Shown: piece by piece, positions 5,812 through 18,018 of the stretch
Layout: every line of letters begins with the position of its first letter
Position numbering within the stretch: the first letter of the stretch is position 1
Origin: a virus
Lineage: Duplodnaviria; Heunggongvirae; Uroviricota; Caudoviricetes
IMG/VR virus record: IMGVR_UViG_2554235185_000012
DNA: 41,213 nucleotides
Reading direction: 5' to 3' (one strand)
Translations under genes and position numbers: made by a program
Notes under the pieces: model-generated
Seen by the model: the letters and a program-made list of their open reading frames with translations, nothing else
The model's database searches: none
What the model was told of the DNA's origin: nothing

Positions 5812-6057
5812 ATGACTTTTGATGAAAAAGAACTTGATAATGCAATTAATAAAATCATCGTAACGTCGCTCTTTTTCTGTCTCAGCGACACTCAGCAGAA
5901 ACAGTTCTACGAATCGGCTTTCAACATGATCGAGCGTTGTTGTTTCTGCGATGCCGACGAGTTACCTGAAAAAATCAGGAAACAGTTGGCTGATGCTCTT
6001 CGAGTGCGACTTTCTGACCAATTTTCTGAAATGTGCTCTCCGAATTTGGACAAATAG
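5812..6057 (+). CDS. Hypothetical small protein (81 aa), antisense to the early-left operon
   Basis: AAGGAAAA Shine-Dalgarno 8 nt before the ATG; overlaps the 3-prime end of the minus-strand ORF 5975..6250, so only one of the two is likely real. Confidence 0.3.
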   Translation: MTFDEKELDNAINKIIVTSLFFCLSDTQQKQFYESAFNMIERCCFCDADELPEKIRKQLADALRVRLSDQFSEMCSPNLDK

Positions 6058-6250
6058 AAAAAGGCCATTTCCATTCAGGGTCTGATGGAAATACTTCAGC
6101 CTGTTCCAAAGCACGGCGTAAAGAGAACACAACTCCAGCCATAATCTGATGTTTCCCATTGGTCCAGCTATCGCCGCTCTGATCTACAGGGGCGGCTATG
6201 TCGTATGACCAAACGACTTCACAGTTATTGTTTAAAATCTGGACTTTCAT
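5975..6250 (-). CDS. Hypothetical first gene of the pL operon (91 aa from the internal ATG)
   Basis: GCAGGTG Shine-Dalgarno before ATG(MKVQIL); Trp-rich; not Arg-rich, so not N-like. Confidence 0.35.
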   Translation of the reverse strand: MKVQILNNNCEVVWSYDIAAPVDQSGDSWTNGKHQIMAGVVFSLRRALEQAEVFPSDPEWKWPFSICPNSESTFQKIGQKVALEEHQPTVS

Positions 6251-6373
6251 TTCATACACCTGCTTTAACATGAGTGCCTGGTGGCACAACATGACTCAAC
6301 GAATCATCCTGGACTTCATATGCCCCAGGCGGCTACTTCGTGGGCGTCCTGCCTGTTCGTTGTCGGTAAAATG

Positions 6374-6418
6374 ATATTGCTACTTAAAGTTGCAAAAATC
6401 AACTACAAAAAGTAGAAG
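6374..6418 (-). promoter_or_regulatory. Putative pL promoter and oL operators (leftward)
   Basis: On the minus strand TTGATT -N17- CAATAT; spacer carries GCTACTTAAAGTTGC, similar to the oR palindrome. Confidence 0.4.
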
Positions 6419-6721
6419 TTAAGGGCATAAAAACGCATTTTGAAATTAATTCATTGAATTTACAGGTAAAATATTTTGGGGGCTATGATCAAAAAATTAT
6501 ATTGTGAAGTTAGCTGAGTTGTAGAACGTGATGGATTGTTTCATTGTGGCTGAGATCAGTATGTGATCTAGTTAATCATCAAGTGGGGAGAAGTCAATCA
6601 TGAGAGTATTGTTGAGTTTTTGGAGGCTAAGTGTAAAACGGTAGGGAATTTACTACTCAATGGATTGTGTGATTTAGCCTCGATAGTAAGAAAACTAGGG
6701 CAGGTCATAGTCAAAAACTTA

Positions 6722-7006
6722 TCAAAACATAAATTTGGCGAGACCTAAAATCGCCAAGCCTGTTGCAACAGTCCATGCGATCTGTTTATTTACGGCTGAT
6801 GAAATAGCGCTGTTGACTTCACTTAGGCTAGGTTTTTTTGACAACTTTTCATCTATATCTATTTGTTTTTGAAGGATAACAGCGACATCGCGTCGGGTGT
6901 CGGAGAGAGCGTTTCGCAAATCACGAATGTCAGCTCTCATCTCTGCGAGATTTGTTTTTATATCCTCAACATTCGCTTCTAACTTAGCGACTCGGGCTTC
7001 AAGCAT
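6722..7006 (-). CDS. Coiled-coil protein with C-terminal transmembrane anchor (94 aa from ATG 7006; possible 5-prime extension to 7093 or 7129)
   Basis: GGAGGTGATGAC Shine-Dalgarno before ATG(MLEARVAKLEAN); heptad-like N-terminus and hydrophobic tail AWTVATGLAILGLAKFMF; last gene of the cI transcription unit. Confidence 0.55.
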   Translation of the reverse strand: MLEARVAKLEANVEDIKTNLAEMRADIRDLRNALSDTRRDVAVILQKQIDIDEKLSKKPSLSEVNSAISSAVNKQIAWTVATGLAILGLAKFMF

Positions 7007-7073
7007 GTCATCACCTCCGCCATCTCCACCGTGTCTTCTAATTGTGGGAAGTTCACTATTAAATGGTACTACA

Positions 7074-7421
7074 TTATTTTGCGGCGTCGGCATTTTTTTC
7101 ATCTTCCGTTTTTGCTGGGAACTTTTCATTTACCCAGTTCAAAACTGAAAACGCATTTATATGAATTTCATTTCCACAATTGTTGCATATTAGTGAAAAG
7201 TAATACTGGTTAGCAGTATCAGAATAAATGCTTTTTTCAGTAAAAACATTCACATAACTACCAAGTTTCATAGTACATGGCATGCCCACATTCGCGCTGA
7301 CTTGAGGCACAGTCAATCTGTCGTGTCCACATAGTGTACATTTTAGATATATATTCTTTTCTGAGAAATAAGAGACCAACATATCCATGTTAATCTTTTC
7401 GAATCCCTGCTCACTAGCCAT
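7074..7421 (-). CDS. Cys4 zinc-ribbon protein (115 aa), immediately downstream of cI
   Basis: CxxC pairs at C28/C31 and C79/C82; AAGGG Shine-Dalgarno; start 15 nt after the cI stop; visibly AT-rich. Confidence 0.55.
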   Translation of the reverse strand: MASEQGFEKINMDMLVSYFSEKNIYLKCTLCGHDRLTVPQVSANVGMPCTMKLGSYVNVFTEKSIYSDTANQYYFSLICNNCGNEIHINAFSVLNWVNEKFPAKTEDEKNADAAK

Positions 7422-7436
7422 TATATGCCCTTAGAA

Positions 7437-8177
7437 CTATAACCGATTGTATTTTATTGACTCATGAATCAACGCCTTGCCCATTACATAAAGCTGATCC
7501 TGCGATTTTTCATCGATGTACCATTTCTCATAGGCAGGGTTATCCGAAAGAACGGCTAGCTTGTCACCTTGCATTTGAAGACGTTTAACATGAAAAGTCT
7601 TACCGTAAACGAAAGAGTAAATTCCATCAGTCTGGAAGTGACGAACAGAAATGTCGACAAACAGTCGATCTCCGGAAACGAGAGTAGGGGACATACTATC
7701 GCCATTTACAGTCATAACCTTAATATCATCCTGAGAACGGTTACCGAAAAGAGAACGGGCATGTTCTGTTGTGAACTCAATGGCGTAGAGCACATCAACA
7801 TAGTCTGAAAGCATATAGGTTCCAGGTCCTGCGCTAACGCTAAGATCTAAAACTTCTATCCTGTATACGTCGGGTTTTGTTGGATTGGGGATGCTTGCCA
7901 TTTCCTTACATCCTTCTCTCTCGCCAACACCATATTCTAAATATGAAGCCGATACCCCCAGAGCCAACGCAAGTTTATTCATGACAGAGGCACGAGGCTT
8001 CGCTGCGCCGATTGTGTATCGCCGCGCCATTTCATATGTAACGCCAACAAGACTTTTGAGTTGGGTGACAGAAATTCCCTTGTTTGTCATTAACTCGTTT
8101 AGTCTCTTGGCGAAATCTGGATACTTCTGTTCTTCTACCATAGGTAGAAGATTACTCACATCACATACGCTCGTCAT
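7437..8177 (-). CDS. cI: CI-type prophage repressor (HTH plus S24 LexA-like autopeptidase domain)
   Basis: N-terminal HTH (GISVTQLKSLVGVTYEMARR), C-terminal GDSM serine and KRL lysine motifs; divergent from cro; start chosen at ATG 8177 as a leaderless pRM product (alternatives at 8198 or 8141). Confidence 0.8.
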   Translation of the reverse strand: MTSVCDVSNLLPMVEEQKYPDFAKRLNELMTNKGISVTQLKSLVGVTYEMARRYTIGAAKPRASVMNKLALALGVSASYLEYGVGEREGCKEMASIPNPTKPDVYRIEVLDLSVSAGPGTYMLSDYVDVLYAIEFTTEHARSLFGNRSQDDIKVMTVNGDSMSPTLVSGDRLFVDISVRHFQTDGIYSFVYGKTFHVKRLQMQGDKLAVLSDNPAYEKWYIDEKSQDQLYVMGKALIHESIKYNRL

Positions 8178-8180
8178 TTC

Positions 8181-8222
8181 TATTTTAAGTAGTTGCAATT
8201 CGCTACTTTAAGTAGCATTATC
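8181..8222. promoter_or_regulatory. oR operator cluster with pR (rightward) and putative pRM (leftward)
   Basis: pR -35 TTGCAA (8193..8198), 17-nt spacer, -10 CATTAT (8216..8221); 15-bp palindrome GCTACTTTAAGTAGC at 8202..8216; TAAAAT on the minus strand just upstream of the cI ATG. Confidence 0.55.
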
Positions 8223-8248
8223 CCCTCTGGATTTCAGAGGAGAAAGAT

Positions 8249-8512
8249 ATGTCATCTCAAAACTACACCGAGAAAGCAGTAAAGGCTGCGGGAAAGTCTT
8301 TATCTGAAGTAGCTCGTCGCTTTGGTTTTAAATCTACTCAATCTGTCGCTAATTGGGTAATTAACAATCAAGTCCCGTCGGAACGAGTTTTACAACTTTG
8401 TGAGCTGGGGAACTGGTCCGTAACCCCCCATGAGCTGCGTCCTGATATTTATCCAAATCCAAATGATGGATTACCAGAGTGCTATTCAAAAGTTAGCGGT
8501 TCAGTTGCGTAA
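8249..8512 (+). CDS. cro: Cro-like HTH regulator (87 aa)
   Basis: First gene downstream of pR, divergent from cI; GGAGAAAG Shine-Dalgarno; HTH-like segment LSEVARRFGFKSTQSVANW. Confidence 0.65.
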   Translation: MSSQNYTEKAVKAAGKSLSEVARRFGFKSTQSVANWVINNQVPSERVLQLCELGNWSVTPHELRPDIYPNPNDGLPECYSKVSGSVA

Positions 8513-15463: not shown

Positions 15464-15805
15464 ATGAAAATGCATAACGATCCTCATTCCTGGCCTGACT
15501 TACTTGAATTGTTTCAGAGCTGGTGGCGTGGAGACACACCGCTGGGCGCAGTGATTATGTCGATTGTTATGGCTGGTTTACGTATTGCCTATTTTGGCGG
15601 TGGTGGTGGCTGGAAGCGAAAAACACTCGAAATTCTACTCTGTGGCGCTCTGACGCTGACTTTTGCATCCGCTCTTGAGTATGTCGGATGGCCTAAATCA
15701 CTATCTGTTGCCATTGGTGGTGGAGTGGGGCTGATCGGTGTCGATGCTATTCGTGGGGCTGCAATGCGAGTAATCGGTAACAAATTTGGTAGCTCGAAGG
15801 AGTAA
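15464..15805 (+). CDS. Holin (three predicted TM segments, MKM dual-start motif)
   Basis: GGAGGTGA Shine-Dalgarno; three hydrophobic segments; immediately precedes the endolysin. Confidence 0.8.
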   Translation: MKMHNDPHSWPDLLELFQSWWRGDTPLGAVIMSIVMAGLRIAYFGGGGGWKRKTLEILLCGALTLTFASALEYVGWPKSLSVAIGGGVGLIGVDAIRGAAMRVIGNKFGSSKE

Positions 15806-15808
15806 TTT

Positions 15809-16285
15809 ATGCAGGTACTAAATCCTCAGCGTAAAGCTTTCCTGGATATGGTGGCATGGTCAGAGGGAACGGATAACGGGCGACAACCGACACATAACCA
15901 CGGTTATGACGTTATTGTTGGTGGTGAACTATTCACTGATTACTCCGATCACCCTCGCAAACTTGTCACGCTAAATCCGAAACTCAAGTCAACAGCTGCA
16001 GGCCGTTATCAACTTCTTTCCCGTTGGTGGGATGCCTACCGCAAGCAGCTTGGCCTGAAAGACTTCTCTCCCAAAAGCCAGGATGCTGTGGCATTGCAGC
16101 AGATTAAAGAGCGTGGCGCTTTACCGATGATTGATCGCGGTGATATCCGTCAGGCTATCGATCGTTGCAGCAATATCTGGGCGTCGTTACCTGGTGCAGG
16201 TTACGGTCAGTATGAACATAAAATCAGTGACCTGATTTCCCGGTTTAAAGAGGCAGGTGGGGTGGTAAATGAAGTTGAGCTATAA
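15809..16285 (+). CDS. R: Endolysin, lambda R-type lytic transglycosylase
   Basis: 158 aa, recognised as near-identical to lambda R (QRKAFLDM.AWSEGTDNGRQ...). Confidence 0.9.
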   Translation: MQVLNPQRKAFLDMVAWSEGTDNGRQPTHNHGYDVIVGGELFTDYSDHPRKLVTLNPKLKSTAAGRYQLLSRWWDAYRKQLGLKDFSPKSQDAVALQQIKERGALPMIDRGDIRQAIDRCSNIWASLPGAGYGQYEHKISDLISRFKEAGGVVNEVEL

Positions 16286-16661
16286 GCTGGTTATCGCTGC
16301 ATTCTTCTTTACTGTCATTGGTTCTTTCATCTGGTCTGCCAACCACTACTACAGCAAATATCAGCACGAAAAGAAACGTGCTGATGAGGCTGTACAAAAT
16401 GCTGAATCTGCAACAGCCATTACCCGTAACGTCCTGCAATCACTGCAACTCGTCAATACAGTTATAGAGGTTAACCAGCATGCAAAACAGCAGATCGCAC
16501 TGGAGTCACAGAGAACCCAGAAAGATATCAAAGTGGCTGTTGCGGATGATGATTGTGCTGCAGGCCTTGTGCCTGCTGCCGCTGCTGAGCGGTTGCGGAA
16601 GTACGCGAACAGTTTACGTGAGCATTCCGGTGGTTCCGTTACCAGCCACCCTGACGGCTGA
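16269..16661 (+). CDS. i-spanin (Rz-like), N-terminal TM anchor
   Basis: N-terminal TM segment then coiled-coil; start overlaps the endolysin 3-prime end. Confidence 0.65.
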   Translation: MKLSYKLVIAAFFFTVIGSFIWSANHYYSKYQHEKKRADEAVQNAESATAITRNVLQSLQLVNTVIEVNQHAKQQIALESQRTQKDIKVAVADDDCAAGLVPAAAAERLRKYANSLREHSGGSVTSHPDG

Positions 16662-16803
16662 AACGCCTTATCCTGACATTCCGGATAATATGACATGGGG
16701 TAATAGTCTTAATTTAAATGTCAGTCTGCTATCGGCACTTGGCCAGTGCAATCGGGATAAGGCTGATATCAGGCAGGCTGAGAAAAAAAGAGCGGGCTTC
16801 TAA
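16546..16803 (+). CDS. o-spanin (Rz1-like lipoprotein), overlapped architecture
   Basis: Lipobox LLSGC, Pro-rich mature region; begins inside Rz in another frame and extends past the Rz stop. Confidence 0.6.
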   Translation: MMIVLQALCLLPLLSGCGSTRTVYVSIPVVPLPATLTAETPYPDIPDNMTWGNSLNLNVSLLSALGQCNRDKADIRQAEKKRAGF

Positions 16804-16830: not shown

Positions 16831-17391
16831 TTAAAGTACCCACCAGCGGATCGATTCCGTGGGTATGGTTGCAGCCTCGACTTGATGAACAATTCCCAAC
16901 TCGGAGGCCCTTCCGGGATGAAGGATGGTTGCCGAAGTGATCAAATCCTTCCAATCAGCAATCTCACTTGGATTTTTCTTTTTTGTTTCAATATCCATGA
17001 TTTGAATAAATCGATTTAGATCGTCATCGAGGCATGAAGCCCATTCTCTCAATCGTAGGTGATCTGCGCTGGGTGCGGCGAACCCCCAATGCAGTGGGTG
17101 AAGAAGGAAGCGAGAAAGTGGGTTGGCAGTTCGCACTTCTCCAGCCATATAGATCACGTTTGCGATTGATTCAACATTACTGAGGTTATGCGTAGTAACC
17201 TTTACACCAAGTGACTTTAAAAAATTGTAAGCAGTAAAGCCTGAAACTGTATCTCCACCTTTGCTGGAAATATAGAGCTTAATTTCTGTTGCTGGTTGAT
17301 TAGTATTTGAAACTGCTTTTAAGCAGACATCCATCAGATTAGTTACAGAGGCAACTGTAACATCTGTCAAAAAATGTACCGTATGGATCAT
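16831..17391 (-). CDS. ClpP-fold serine protease-like protein (Ser/His retained), cargo gene
   Basis: Aligns by eye to ClpP: ISSKGGDTVSG vs INSPGGVITAG, VESIA vs AASMG (Ser75), RFLLHPL vs RVMIHQPL (His98); GAGGAG Shine-Dalgarno; AT-rich. Confidence 0.7.
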   Translation of the reverse strand: MIHTVHFLTDVTVASVTNLMDVCLKAVSNTNQPATEIKLYISSKGGDTVSGFTAYNFLKSLGVKVTTHNLSNVESIANVIYMAGEVRTANPLSRFLLHPLHWGFAAPSADHLRLREWASCLDDDLNRFIQIMDIETKKKNPSEIADWKDLITSATILHPGRASELGIVHQVEAATIPTESIRWWVL

Positions 17392-17469
17392 TTTTACTCC
17401 TCAATGGCAGGTCGCTAATGCAACAGGAAATGCAAATAATCGAATGTTATTAGAGCATCAAAGTAGAGC

Positions 17470-18018
17470 CTAGCTCTGTGGCGTGCTTAAGCATTTTGCT
17501 TCGTAATGTACCCTCATGGAAAACATAGCGAATAACATAATGAGCTTATCGCGTAAGCTTGTAGAGGATCCCGTGAAACTTACAACCCTAGTTTCTGCTC
17601 CGTAAACCCCAAGCTTAAAATCTCTAATGGGGGTCAAGCTATCAGGGTAACCGTGCTCCATTAGACTTGTTAAGGAGTCAATCTCACTGTTAGTGATGTC
17701 AGAGTTGTTAATTTGATGTGAACGTTTGTTTCTGAAGTTGTTGAACCTTCGAATAAATTTGTTTAGCTCTGAGCTCATCCCATAGTTCATCGCAAGCTGA
17801 GCTTTAATGGCAAAATCCATGTTGATATTTTCGCCAAAACCGCTGAAGAAATCCCTGTTACCAGAGGCACAGATAATCCAAGCTTCCAAGATTTGTTCAA
17901 TCAAAAGGTGAGTGCGGAGATAGATACCAATGTCATCTTGGGACCGAACTATAGTCATTATTCTATCGGGTTGATGGGATGCTAAAGTCAACTCTTCAAA
18001 ATGAGTAAAATCAAACAT
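17470..18018 (-). CDS. Hypothetical protein with RNxxxH (HEPN-like) motif, first gene of the cargo operon
   Basis: AAGGA Shine-Dalgarno; motif F95-R96-N97-K98-R99-S100-H101 fits the HEPN Rx4-6H pattern; AT-rich. Confidence 0.55.
   Translation of the reverse strand: MFDFTHFEELTLASHQPDRIMTIVRSQDDIGIYLRTHLLIEQILEAWIICASGNRDFFSGFGENINMDFAIKAQLAMNYGMSSELNKFIRRFNNFRNKRSHQINNSDITNSEIDSLTSLMEHGYPDSLTPIRDFKLGVYGAETRVVSFTGSSTSLRDKLIMLFAMFSMRVHYEAKCLSTPQS

Follow-up and report, generated by a model that had tools for sequence, protein, structure and literature searches.

In lambdoid phages, the cI-N region is classically occupied by Rex, the earliest abortive-infection system on record. RexA is a protein of ~279 aa, and its partner RexB a polytopic membrane protein with four helices. 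Known Sie proteins such as SieA and HK97 gp15 are polytopic, and BstA is a single KilA-N protein that acts at phage DNA replication. Among lysis proteins, XhlA shares its late lysis cassette with a holin and an amidase, and the late-expressed S gene of lambda has two starts that lie two codons apart. The immunity region is a hotspot of mosaicism, occupied by rexAB in lambda and by bstA in BTP1 (PMC8585504), and SieA of P22, a single inner-membrane protein, is encoded together with orf59a beside mnt (PMC10883804). For the actinobacteriophages Sbash (gp30/gp31), Butters (gp30/gp31) and CarolAnn, Rex-like pairs are reported in which a RexA-like cytosolic protein and a RexB-like membrane protein are expressed from the prophage and defend against unrelated phages; in Butters, the membrane protein is reported to sequester the cytosolic effector (PMC6426596, PMC7542560, PMC6426606, PMC12894663).

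The window analyzed here, a stretch of 41,213 nucleotides from an E. coli prophage, carries two small genes, P1 and P2, behind a cI-type repressor gene (Table 1). The cassette belongs to a large modular family whose members consistently occupy prophage slots expressed in the lysogen, which makes it a strong candidate for a new phage-exclusion system. The first-pass annotation had described a gene pair after cI, and both open reading frames are present on the minus strand. The repressor was recognized by Pfam matches to Peptidase_S24 (E 8.4e-17) and HTH_3 (E 2e-5) and by PHROG_4, transcriptional repressor (E 3e-50). P1 begins 15 nt after the cI stop codon on the same strand, and no terminator-like site was found between cI and P1. 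A 13-bp palindrome, CTACTTNNNGTAG, has 11 matches in the window against 0.99 expected; it forms two pairs with identical spacing of 23 bp (6380-6392/6403-6415 and 8180-8192/8203-8215), and an extra site with one mismatch lies at 8135-8147. The genes cI, P1 and P2 are bracketed by operator pairs like OL and OR, which is the arrangement of the rexAB slot. The earlier placement of the pair in that slot therefore stands, as P1 and P2 are co-oriented with cI and lie inside the operator-bounded immunity region, separated from cI by the short gap only. Lysogen expression of both genes is predicted because they would be co-transcribed with the repressor. The GC content is 0.356 for P1, 0.430 for P2, 0.434 for cI (close to P2) and 0.504 for the window.

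Table 1 Features of the cassette and of the regions around it in the window
Feature	Position	Strand	Remarks
P1 and P2 open reading frames	7074-7421 (115 aa) and 6722-7129 (135 aa, longest ORF)	minus	ORF coordinates checked
P1, 115-aa soluble Cys4 protein (predicted)	7074-7421	minus	CxxC at 28-31 and 79-82; PHROG_4293, E 5e-31
P2, full-length	6722-7093 (123 aa)	minus	PHROG_3556, E 1.5e-47; overlaps the P1 stop codon (7074-7076)
Internal Shine-Dalgarno sequence and start	7004-7018	minus	GGAGG 7014-7018, 7 nt, invariant ATG 7004-7006
Nested 94-aa P2 isoform (predicted), without N-terminal peptide and linker	6722-7006	minus	codon signature
cI-type repressor (HTH_3 + Peptidase_S24)	7437-8198; RefSeq start 8141 (234 aa)	minus	WP_023145979.1
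OR-type operator pair, two CTACTTNNNGTAG	8180-8215		between cI and a divergent cro-like gene (8249-8512, plus)
OL-type operator pair, same palindrome and spacing	6380-6415		marks the left end of the immunity region, ahead of the leftward early genes
Exchangeable cassette, cI stop codon to OL	6417-7437	minus	comparison with L151
AT-rich non-coding tail, 305 bp	6417-6721		inside the cassette
Lysis cassette: lambda-family holin, GH24 endolysin, Rz/Rz1-like spanins	~15464-16803	plus	

Like lambda RexA and RexB, the pair follows cI on the same strand between OL and OR, hence its expected expression in the lysogen, and combines one soluble with one membrane protein, for which a logic of sensor to membrane effector is proposed. 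The two systems differ in that they share no sequence relationship: as had been held before, P1 and P2 are unrelated to the Rex proteins, RexA and RexB giving no Pfam match to either protein at E<=1 and none in PADLOC. Furthermore, P1 is a 115-aa Cys4 protein, and P2, unlike RexB, is anchored once, at its C-terminus, and has a long coiled coil and a predicted nested short isoform.

P1 is best read as a soluble protein with a predicted Cys4 zinc ribbon. Its cysteines are found at positions 28, 31, 49, 79 and 82, in agreement with the two CxxC pairs (C28/C31 and C79/C82) that had been read from the sequence. Among 105 family members, C28, C31, C79 and C82 were the sole invariant columns, and C49 was not conserved. 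The P1 family comprises 194 clusters among 1.84 billion representatives; exactly two CxxC motifs were present in 143 of the 146 newly returned members, and the family sequences contain the four putative Zn ligands, in two CxxC knuckles, of a zinc ribbon. The AlphaFold2 model of P1 had a pLDDT of 86.2 and a pTM of 0.73, with the acidic C-terminal tail poorly modelled. The best PDB sequence match, ComFB (E 0.085), was rejected, and an 861-aa protein with 14 CxxC motifs (P0076), matched by the P1 profile in seven stretches, was set aside as spurious.

P2 consists, in this order, of an N-terminal peptide (NNVVPFNSELP), a Gly-rich linker, a coiled coil and a C-terminal membrane anchor. Its true start is probably ATG 7093 (123 aa) or 7102 (126 aa, RefSeq) and not 7129; ATG 7093 is preceded by GGAAG 9 nt upstream, and homologs begin with MPTP. 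The best 19-residue hydrophobic window, with a Kyte-Doolittle value of 1.70, is located at the extreme C-terminus (residues 117-135, numbering of the 135-aa ORF). Over residues ~41-117, more than 20 coiled-coil families were matched, all below threshold, and the PDB returned only generic coiled coils such as Lpp, GCN4, c-Jun and CoREST. A coiled coil followed by a C-terminal TM helix, the architecture assigned by the first-pass annotation, is thus confirmed by these matches and the hydrophobic window. Of 61 unique P2-family members, 58 had a best window of at least 1.6, none had a second such window, and the residues after it numbered 7 in the median. A double-glycine bacteriocin leader at the P2 N-terminus was considered and rejected, since its hydrophobic spacing misfits by eye and no transporter was found among the annotated neighboring clusters.

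The first-pass annotation missed both the modularity of the family and a start site inside P2. The Gly codon at position -4 relative to this site was GGA in 25 of 29 P2 cluster representatives (binomial P 3.6e-14 against a background of 20%), compared with 1/20 at -5 and 3/28 at -3. Sequences without the Met at the opening of the P2 body have GTG in its place. This conserved GGAGG, at a constant distance of 7 nt from an invariant Met, therefore implies a nested 94-aa isoform, and suggests that two P2 isoforms are produced. As with S107/S105 of lambda, one membrane-protein gene would yield two nested products that differ at the N-terminus and might set a trigger threshold, for P2 on the basis of codon bias. 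Unlike in lambda S, the P2 starts are separated by ~29 codons, and the peptide matched to the partner is part of the long form.

The P2-profile search yielded 66 non-redundant loci. A small partner gene was located directly upstream of the P2 relative in 64 of them, with a gap of -56 to +97 nt, and these partners comprised 36 of class B, 21 of the Cys4 type, 4 of class C, 1 of the HK544_041 type and 2 tandem arrangements. P2 relatives are accompanied by at least four unrelated small-protein classes, the Cys4 relatives of P1 being one. In the reciprocal search, which used an alignment of one P1 subfamily as query, the gene downstream of the hits nearly always encoded a small protein that combined a C-terminal TM helix with a coiled coil and a run of Gly. 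The view of the two genes as one module is thereby considerably strengthened, because a search from either gene finds the other adjacent, and does so in several lysogen-expressed slots. As a rule the pair sits behind a lysogeny repressor: a repressor gene (S24 cI, lambda cI, short HTH cI or Arc/Mnt) lay directly before it in at least 36 of the 66 loci.

Nothing significant was obtained for P1 or P2 in Pfam, NCBIfam or PADLOC, and the same was true for the other partner classes. The search of PADLOC-DB v2.0.0, which covered P1, P2 and three other partner classes, gave weak matches (LmuB as the best with E ~1e-4, JetC and DruC) that were dismissed as coiled-coil noise. That the proteins have no significant similarity to any known defence protein is a point against the exclusion reading. 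No paper naming or describing the cassette proteins was found among the papers covered, and none of four family accessions was among the entries listed in the DefensePredictor supplements.

The variety of partners bears on an addiction module of the toxin-antitoxin type, in which P2 would be a membrane toxin and P1 its translationally coupled upstream antitoxin, the prophage being stabilized and defence secondary. The overlap of two small genes, of which the first encodes the soluble protein, the holin-like topology of P2 and the acidic, poorly modelled tail of P1 would suit such a module. It is nevertheless improbable, given that four unrelated partner classes for one toxin would be unusual in TA pairs, that the family-library search detected no DNA-binding or known antitoxin domain in P1, and that among the loci sampled none lay outside prophage lysogeny slots.

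The positions of some cassettes are relevant to exclusion at the stage of DNA entry. In P22-like phages, a class C + P2 cassette is located directly downstream of mnt and adjoins the ejection-protein genes gp16/gp20, in what, by the P22 gene order, is presumably the orf59a/sieA slot of P22. In Salmonella phage S107, the pair is found among lipoprotein morons before the tape-measure gene. These locations, the presence of sieA beside mnt in P22 (PMC10883804) and the existence of membrane-bound defenders acting at injection, such as SNIPE (PMC13190303), are consistent with a membrane-anchored P2 that, with P1 tethered to it on the cytoplasmic side of the inner membrane, would block or intercept injection, the cell surviving. 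Such a mode of action appears unlikely, however, because the median of 7 residues past the P2 anchor leaves no periplasmic domain to meet ejection proteins. In addition, the single anchor of P2 is unlike the polytopic Sie proteins, and dual isoforms with swappable cytosolic partners fit a triggered effector better.

The pair also exchanges its parts. Where P1 was 86-98% identical, the N-terminal part of P2 was 63-86% identical and its body only 19-32%, and for P0046/P0047 a kept N-terminus with a swapped body was predicted beforehand and then confirmed. The N-terminal peptide of P2 travels with the P1 type, and the coiled-coil/membrane body is exchanged; this co-segregation points to binding between P1 and P2. 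The cassette as a whole is exchanged as well. In comparison with L151, which has an identical repressor and a different allele of the pair, similarity ends at 7438 and resumes at 6416, and the segment 6298-6416 is common (91.6%) to prophages with a different cassette. This cassette is missing from approximately 189 of the 206 E. coli genomes in which the repressor region occurs, and two such genomes that were examined (repressor the same or nearly identical, one frameshifted) contain a divergent Cys4 + coiled-coil/TM allele. No near-identical DNA was found among sequenced phages. The non-coding tail of the cassette had no Rfam match and folded no better than shuffled sequence (z -0.83). The sRNA svsR, encoded at the cI 3' end in prophage NC-SV (PMC12803456), was considered and found to be unrelated to the cassette.

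This turnover has to be weighed against a role in the service of the prophage itself, in which the cassette would tune the lysogeny-lysis switch, induction or lysis timing, or act as an XhlA- or antiholin-like holin accessory. Like XhlA of the Bacillus prophage PBSX (PF10779), P2 is small, with an N-terminal coiled coil and a C-terminal TM helix, and this topology is equally compatible with a function in lysis timing. The XhlA-like topology noted in the first-pass annotation fits, but the scores stay below those of the family: P2 gave no match to Pfam XhlA at E<=1, and two P2 relatives reached 19.3 and 20.6 bits against a gathering threshold of 34.7. Weak similarity over the coil and TM helix was found to the PHROG 'hemolysin' families 937/1193 (E ~4e-3), and one P2 homolog is named 'Hemolysin XhlA' in UniRef. 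P2 differs from XhlA in its location behind a repressor gene, its obligate partner gene and the additional N-terminal peptide and Gly linker. The tight linkage of the cassette to repressor genes and a two-isoform design resembling holin/antiholin pairs would also fit a prophage-serving role, and genes in the Rex slot can serve the phage's own switch too, as RexA does. RexA and RexB are reported to influence the lambda switch to lytic growth (bioRxiv 10.1101/2021.04.19.439022). P2 is not the lysis holin, because the prophage encodes a complete set of late lysis genes of its own; P2, behind cI, is ~8 kb from these genes and does not adjoin the endolysin. With a holin-endolysin-spanin set already present under late control, and with a pair that most phages sharing this repressor region either lack or carry as divergent alleles or with unrelated partner classes, a prophage-serving role seems quite unlikely. 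Such turnover is typical of conflict genes and not of core regulation, and the cassette is not confined to repressor genes but is present in tail-gene moron slots as well.

The reading that we prefer, with a probability of about one half, is that the cassette is expressed in the lysogen and belongs to a large, undescribed modular family that likely acts in superinfection exclusion or abortive infection in a Rex-like manner. P2 would be the conserved effector, with its bulk in the cytoplasm and its C-terminal tail anchor in the inner membrane. Long P2, translated by coupling to P1, would carry the ~20-aa N-terminal peptide and flexible Gly linker, and the short 94-aa P2 would be made from the conserved internal GGAGG-7nt-ATG. 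P1 may dock on the peptide of long P2 as an interchangeable subunit for specificity or sensing. As long as the lysogen is uninfected, P1 on long P2 would keep mixed oligomers of long and short P2 inactive, much as an antiholin does. An infection cue acting on P1 would lift this restraint, and freed P2 would permeabilize or depolarize the membrane and abort the infection, resembling RexA/RexB without being related to them. The analysis establishes the architecture, position, synteny and modularity of the pair, the co-segregation of P1 type and peptide, and the codon signature of the internal start; the division into soluble sensor and membrane effector, the roles in exclusion or abortive infection, and in particular membrane damage and anti-phage function are inferred. 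The fact that P2 exposes almost nothing to the periplasm argues against this reading. By analogy, a Butters-type wiring, with the membrane partner sequestering a soluble effector, would also be possible for P1 and P2.

Compared with other prophage defences, the cassette shares with the Sbash, Butters and CarolAnn pairs the combination of a cytosolic and a membrane protein in a prophage, and differs from them in that their sequences are unrelated, their hosts are others, their membrane partners are polytopic and no partner swapping is reported for them. BstA of BTP1 and SieA of P22 are likewise prophage defence genes linked to cI and mnt, respectively (PMC8585504, PMC10883804), but both are single proteins without sequence similarity to P1 or P2. 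If the cassette is an exclusion system, it would be a much smaller and more tractable analog of Rex, with 115 aa plus 94-123 aa. Its natural variation, with four partner classes, swapped bodies and a matched docking peptide, would then hint at how specificity and killing separate, and the internal-start signature would provide a testable handle on how a membrane effector is silenced in the lysogen.

More tentatively, the family might be a widespread, undescribed class of prophage immunity built on one conserved tail-anchored coiled-coil effector. A conserved ribosome-binding site inside the gene would give this effector its two nested isoforms, and at least four unrelated sensors, interchangeable and each docking on a matched N-terminal peptide, would arm it. 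Recombination at the poly-glycine joint would mix sensors and bodies, and the slots would lie beside cI, mnt and tail-gene morons in Enterobacterales, with outliers in other Proteobacteria. In prophages of E. coli, Salmonella, Klebsiella, Photorhabdus and others, the family again follows repressor genes, and the Cys4 + P2 arrangement is kept in a Cellvibrionaceae MAG, an unclassified Pseudomonadota MAG and Falsigemmobacter. The cassette family brings together the function-unknown PHROGs 4293, 3556, 6136, 5893, 4231 and 12039. It is present in phages with lambda immunity and in the Stx1 phage Sp15, and ECs2991, the partner protein in the related cassette of Sp15, has been identified in an O157:H7 proteome (PMC3936929).

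The window contains a lambdoid prophage of E. coli. Its 6400-8250 segment is 100% identical to prophages of strains GB089, 09-00049, MZ1211 and others; the GB089 copy adjoins proA and tRNA-Thr. Eleven matches to the palindrome CTACTTNNNGTAG were counted in the window where 0.99 would be expected, and four of them formed two equally spaced pairs, an OR-type and an OL-type operator pair. Because operator pairs lie on both sides, P1 (the Cys4 protein gene directly after cI) and P2 (the coiled-coil/membrane-anchor gene downstream) fall within an operator-bounded immunity region on the cI strand, and no terminator-like site was found between cI and the pair in a scan of the window sequence. The layout is that of rexAB, as the first-pass annotation had proposed. 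Its description of the pair as AT-rich and unrelated to Rex was likewise borne out: GC was 0.356 for P1 and 0.430 for P2 versus 0.504 for the window, and neither protein had a significant match in Pfam, NCBIfam or PADLOC, RexA and RexB included. The two CxxC pairs of P1 (Cys 28/31 and 79/82; C49 is additional and non-conserved), the coiled-coil character of P2 (residues about 41-117) and its C-terminal hydrophobic helix (117-135) were confirmed. Translation of P2 likely starts at ATG 7093 (MPTPQNN...; GGAAG 9 nt upstream) or 7102 (RefSeq call), not at 7129.

Features of the immunity region and of other prophage genes discussed here
Feature	Coordinates	Strand	Remarks
cro-like gene	starts 8249		divergent from cI
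CTACTTNNNGTAG pair (OR)	8180-8215		23-bp spacing; between cI and cro
cI repressor	7437-8198	-	HTH_3 + Peptidase_S24
Operator-like site CTACCTATGGTAG	8135-8147		one mismatch; 5' part of longest cI ORF
P1	7074-7421	-	115 aa; begins 15 nt past cI
P2, longest ORF	6722-7129	-	overlaps P1 end
Internal GGAGG	7014-7018	-	
Internal ATG	7004-7006	-	predicted 94-aa product
Non-coding tail	6417-6721		305 bp, AT-rich, GC 0.348
CTACTTNNNGTAG pair (OL)	6380-6415		same 23-bp spacing; upstream of leftward early genes
First leftward early gene	5975-6292	-	PHROG 3195, E 8e-70
81-aa ORF	5812-6057	+	end-to-end PHROG 3311 match, E 1.2e-54
Lysis set	about 15464-16803		lambda-type holin, GH24 endolysin, Rz/Rz1-like spanins
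ClpP-like protease subunit (186 aa) and 182-aa hypothetical protein	about 16831-18018	-	between lysis cassette and terminase genes

The CTACCTATGGTAG site, a fifth operator-like site, surrounds the RefSeq cI start codon (8141) 45 bp from the OR pair; it may represent a third OR operator, or have arisen by chance. The 81-aa ORF, absent from the GB089 RefSeq annotation, converges on the first leftward early gene with an 83-nt overlap.

Both proteins matched function-unknown families, P1 PHROG 4293 (E 5e-31) and P2 PHROG 3556 (E 1.5e-47). An exhaustive HMMER profile scan of 1.84 billion representatives expanded the P1 family to 194 clusters, nearly all of stand-alone proteins of 90-165 aa. Exactly two CxxC motifs were present in 143 of 146 newly returned members, and the four cysteines were the only invariant columns in a 105-sequence alignment. 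Proteins of the P1 and P2 families are unnamed in papers within the searchable library, and the four accessions checked were not among the DefensePredictor supplement entries listed. The holin- or XhlA-like topology suggested for P2 held as far as a coiled coil precedes a C-terminal TM segment, but similarity to "hemolysin" (XhlA-type) PHROGs was faint, and the Pfam XhlA model, which has a cut-off of 34.7 bits, gave P2 relatives scores of only 19-21 bits.

To define the gene neighbourhood, 100 loci were collected from genomes and IMG/VR with a P2 profile, neighbouring ORFs were clustered, and 66 non-redundant loci were counted. A small same-strand gene lay directly upstream of the P2 relative in 64, with a gap of -56 to +97 nt and usually an overlap. 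This partner is drawn from one of several unrelated families: class B, the commonest (36 loci; 136-187 aa, PHROG 5893, no Pfam match); Cys4 relatives of P1 (21 loci, with distant pairs in Falsigemmobacter, a Cellvibrionaceae MAG and an unclassified Pseudomonadota MAG); class C (4 loci, PHROG 4231); the HK544_041/ECs2991 type (1 locus, PHROG 12039); and, in Pantoea and Erwinia, tandem P2-like genes (2 loci). A reciprocal search with the S107-type P1 subfamily (47 loci) returned, in nearly all, a downstream small protein with a Gly run, coiled coil and C-terminal TM. P1 and P2 thus form one module that is itself modular. Phage HK544 (L003) and Stx1 phage Sp15 carry HK544_041/040 (ECs2991/2992). 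The tandem genes (loci L015, L016 and L080; 85-99 aa, then 136 aa) have no Cys4 or class B partner and adjoin an AraC-like regulator, not a phage repressor; their context may be non-prophage or degenerate.

The expected association with repressor genes was found at many loci, though not at every one. A lysogeny repressor (S24 cI-type, genuine lambda cI, short HTH cI or Arc/Mnt) stood directly upstream of the pair in at least 36 of 66 loci, a lower bound since the crude gene caller missed some repressor ORFs. In phages with genuine lambda cI and lambda immunity (L073, L082, L086-L101, IMG/VR), the pair stands in place of rexAB and consists of a class B gene plus a P2-family gene of PHROG 6136. 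Elsewhere, pairs lay among tail or baseplate genes: in several Photorhabdus loci they were inserted among baseplate genes, and in Salmonella phage S107 and relatives the Cys4-P2 pair is flanked on one side by Rha genes and on the other by two lipoprotein morons, with the tape-measure gene following. These S107 morons, orf27 and orf28 (L002, 4380-5221), encode small proteins with lipoprotein-type signals (LSGC and LTGC) and form a small moron island with the pair. In P22-like phages, the class C-P2 pair lies immediately 3' of mnt, adjoining ejection-protein genes, in what we take from P22 gene order to be the sieA/orf59a slot. P22 itself has sieA and orf59a beside mnt (PMC10883804). A block to DNA entry without killing of the cell is an alternative that we consider unlikely.

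The slot turns over rapidly. Of 5426 complete E. coli genomes, 206 had the repressor region and only 17 the window's cassette. Two of the genomes lacking this cassette were compared, one with an identical repressor protein, the other with a repressor gene that is nearly identical but carries an annotated frameshift. In both, a divergent allele of this system occupied the slot. Its x1 is a Cys4 protein of 120 aa (P1-profile E 1.2e-18); its x2, matched weakly by the P2 profile (E 8.7e-5), is a 210-aa coiled-coil-like protein whose hydrophobic segment lies close to the C-terminus. The match to the window ended exactly at the cI stop (7437/7438) and resumed at OL (6416/6417). The non-coding tail therefore belongs to the P1-P2 cassette; prophages with the other allele do not share it and have one of ~125 bp. 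It had no Rfam match or canonical terminator, and its RNA fold was no better than shuffled sequence (z -0.83).

P2 proteins begin with a short peptide, followed by low-complexity sequence and a run of Gly; an invariant Met (motif in 60/61) then opens a conserved helix, MLEARVAKLE(A/S)(N/D)VE.IK, which leads into a variable coiled coil and one hydrophobic segment. This segment reached the hydrophobicity cut-off in 58/61 members, a second one was present in 0/61, and a median of 7 residues follows it. In some Photorhabdus members (L008, L012 and L076), tandem repeats within the coiled coil (such as SVESSLSNKIQ and ARLTKSENRFDSKLTEVE(S/G)KFD units) bring the protein to 210-295 aa, and the rod from conserved helix to anchor is therefore freely variable in length. 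At S107-type loci, P1 identity was 87-98% and that of the P2 N-terminal part 63-71%, with three different bodies (the part from the invariant Met onward) sharing 19-32% with one another's reference. The homologs P0046 and P0047 carry the window's N-terminal peptide on another body; a window-type P1 was predicted ahead of them and then confirmed, with an S24 repressor ahead in both. Identity to the window was 86-89% for P1, 83-86% for the N-terminal part and 29% for the body. The peptide and P1 are therefore co-inherited while the body swaps; the Gly linker is the recombination joint, and most simply this would mean that P1 binds the peptide.

At codon -4 from the invariant Met, Gly was encoded by GGA in 46 of the 56 unique sequences and 25 of 29 representatives of clusters at 70% identity (binomial P 3.6e-14); the corresponding GGA rates were 1/20 at -5, 3/28 at -3 and 20% in the remaining genes of these loci. 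This usage places GGAGG exactly 7 nt 5' of the ATG, so the conserved Gly-Gly-x-x-Met is more than a protein feature. More divergent bodies retained GGAGG 4-8 nt upstream, and two loci have, in place of the Met, a Val encoded by GTG, likewise a start codon. Annotators chose the short form for P0023, P0034, P0037 and P0040. The upstream frame, open in all members, encodes a conserved protein sequence and overlaps the partner stop codon. Given this internal signal and the intact upstream frame, P2 most likely makes two products: a long form, whose translation would be coupled to P1, and a short form that would lack the docking peptide.

We favor, with a probability of about 0.5, a two-component exclusion module. 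The cassette resembles the prophage exclusion genes rexAB, bstA and sieA (PMC8585504, PMC10883804) in its lysogen-expressed position, its recurrence beside cI/mnt repressor genes and in tail-moron slots, its rapid allelic replacement and low GC, and its conserved membrane protein with exchangeable partners. The related Sp15 partner ECs2991 was detected in an O157:H7 proteome (PMC3936929). The cI-N region is a mosaic hotspot according to Degnan et al. 2007, as cited by Owen et al. (PMC8585504). In such an exclusion module, specificity would come from P1 or an alternative partner, docked on the long form of P2. P2 itself would act as a tail-anchored effector, its two forms setting the activation threshold, with membrane permeabilisation as the end point. 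The wiring could be reversed, since in the Butters gp30/gp31 pair the cytosolic protein is toxic and is sequestered by its membrane partner (PMC12894663); an addiction module of the toxin-antitoxin kind seems very improbable. That the cassette instead serves the phage itself, in its switch or in the timing of lysis, is quite doubtful. P2 as the lysis holin, identity as a known lysis protein being what the first-pass annotation said would overturn its proposal, is ruled out by the prophage's own holin, endolysin and spanins. Beyond these lysis genes, the ClpP-like gene and its neighbor, whose content was taken from the annotation of the identical prophage in MZ1211, look like another moron pair.
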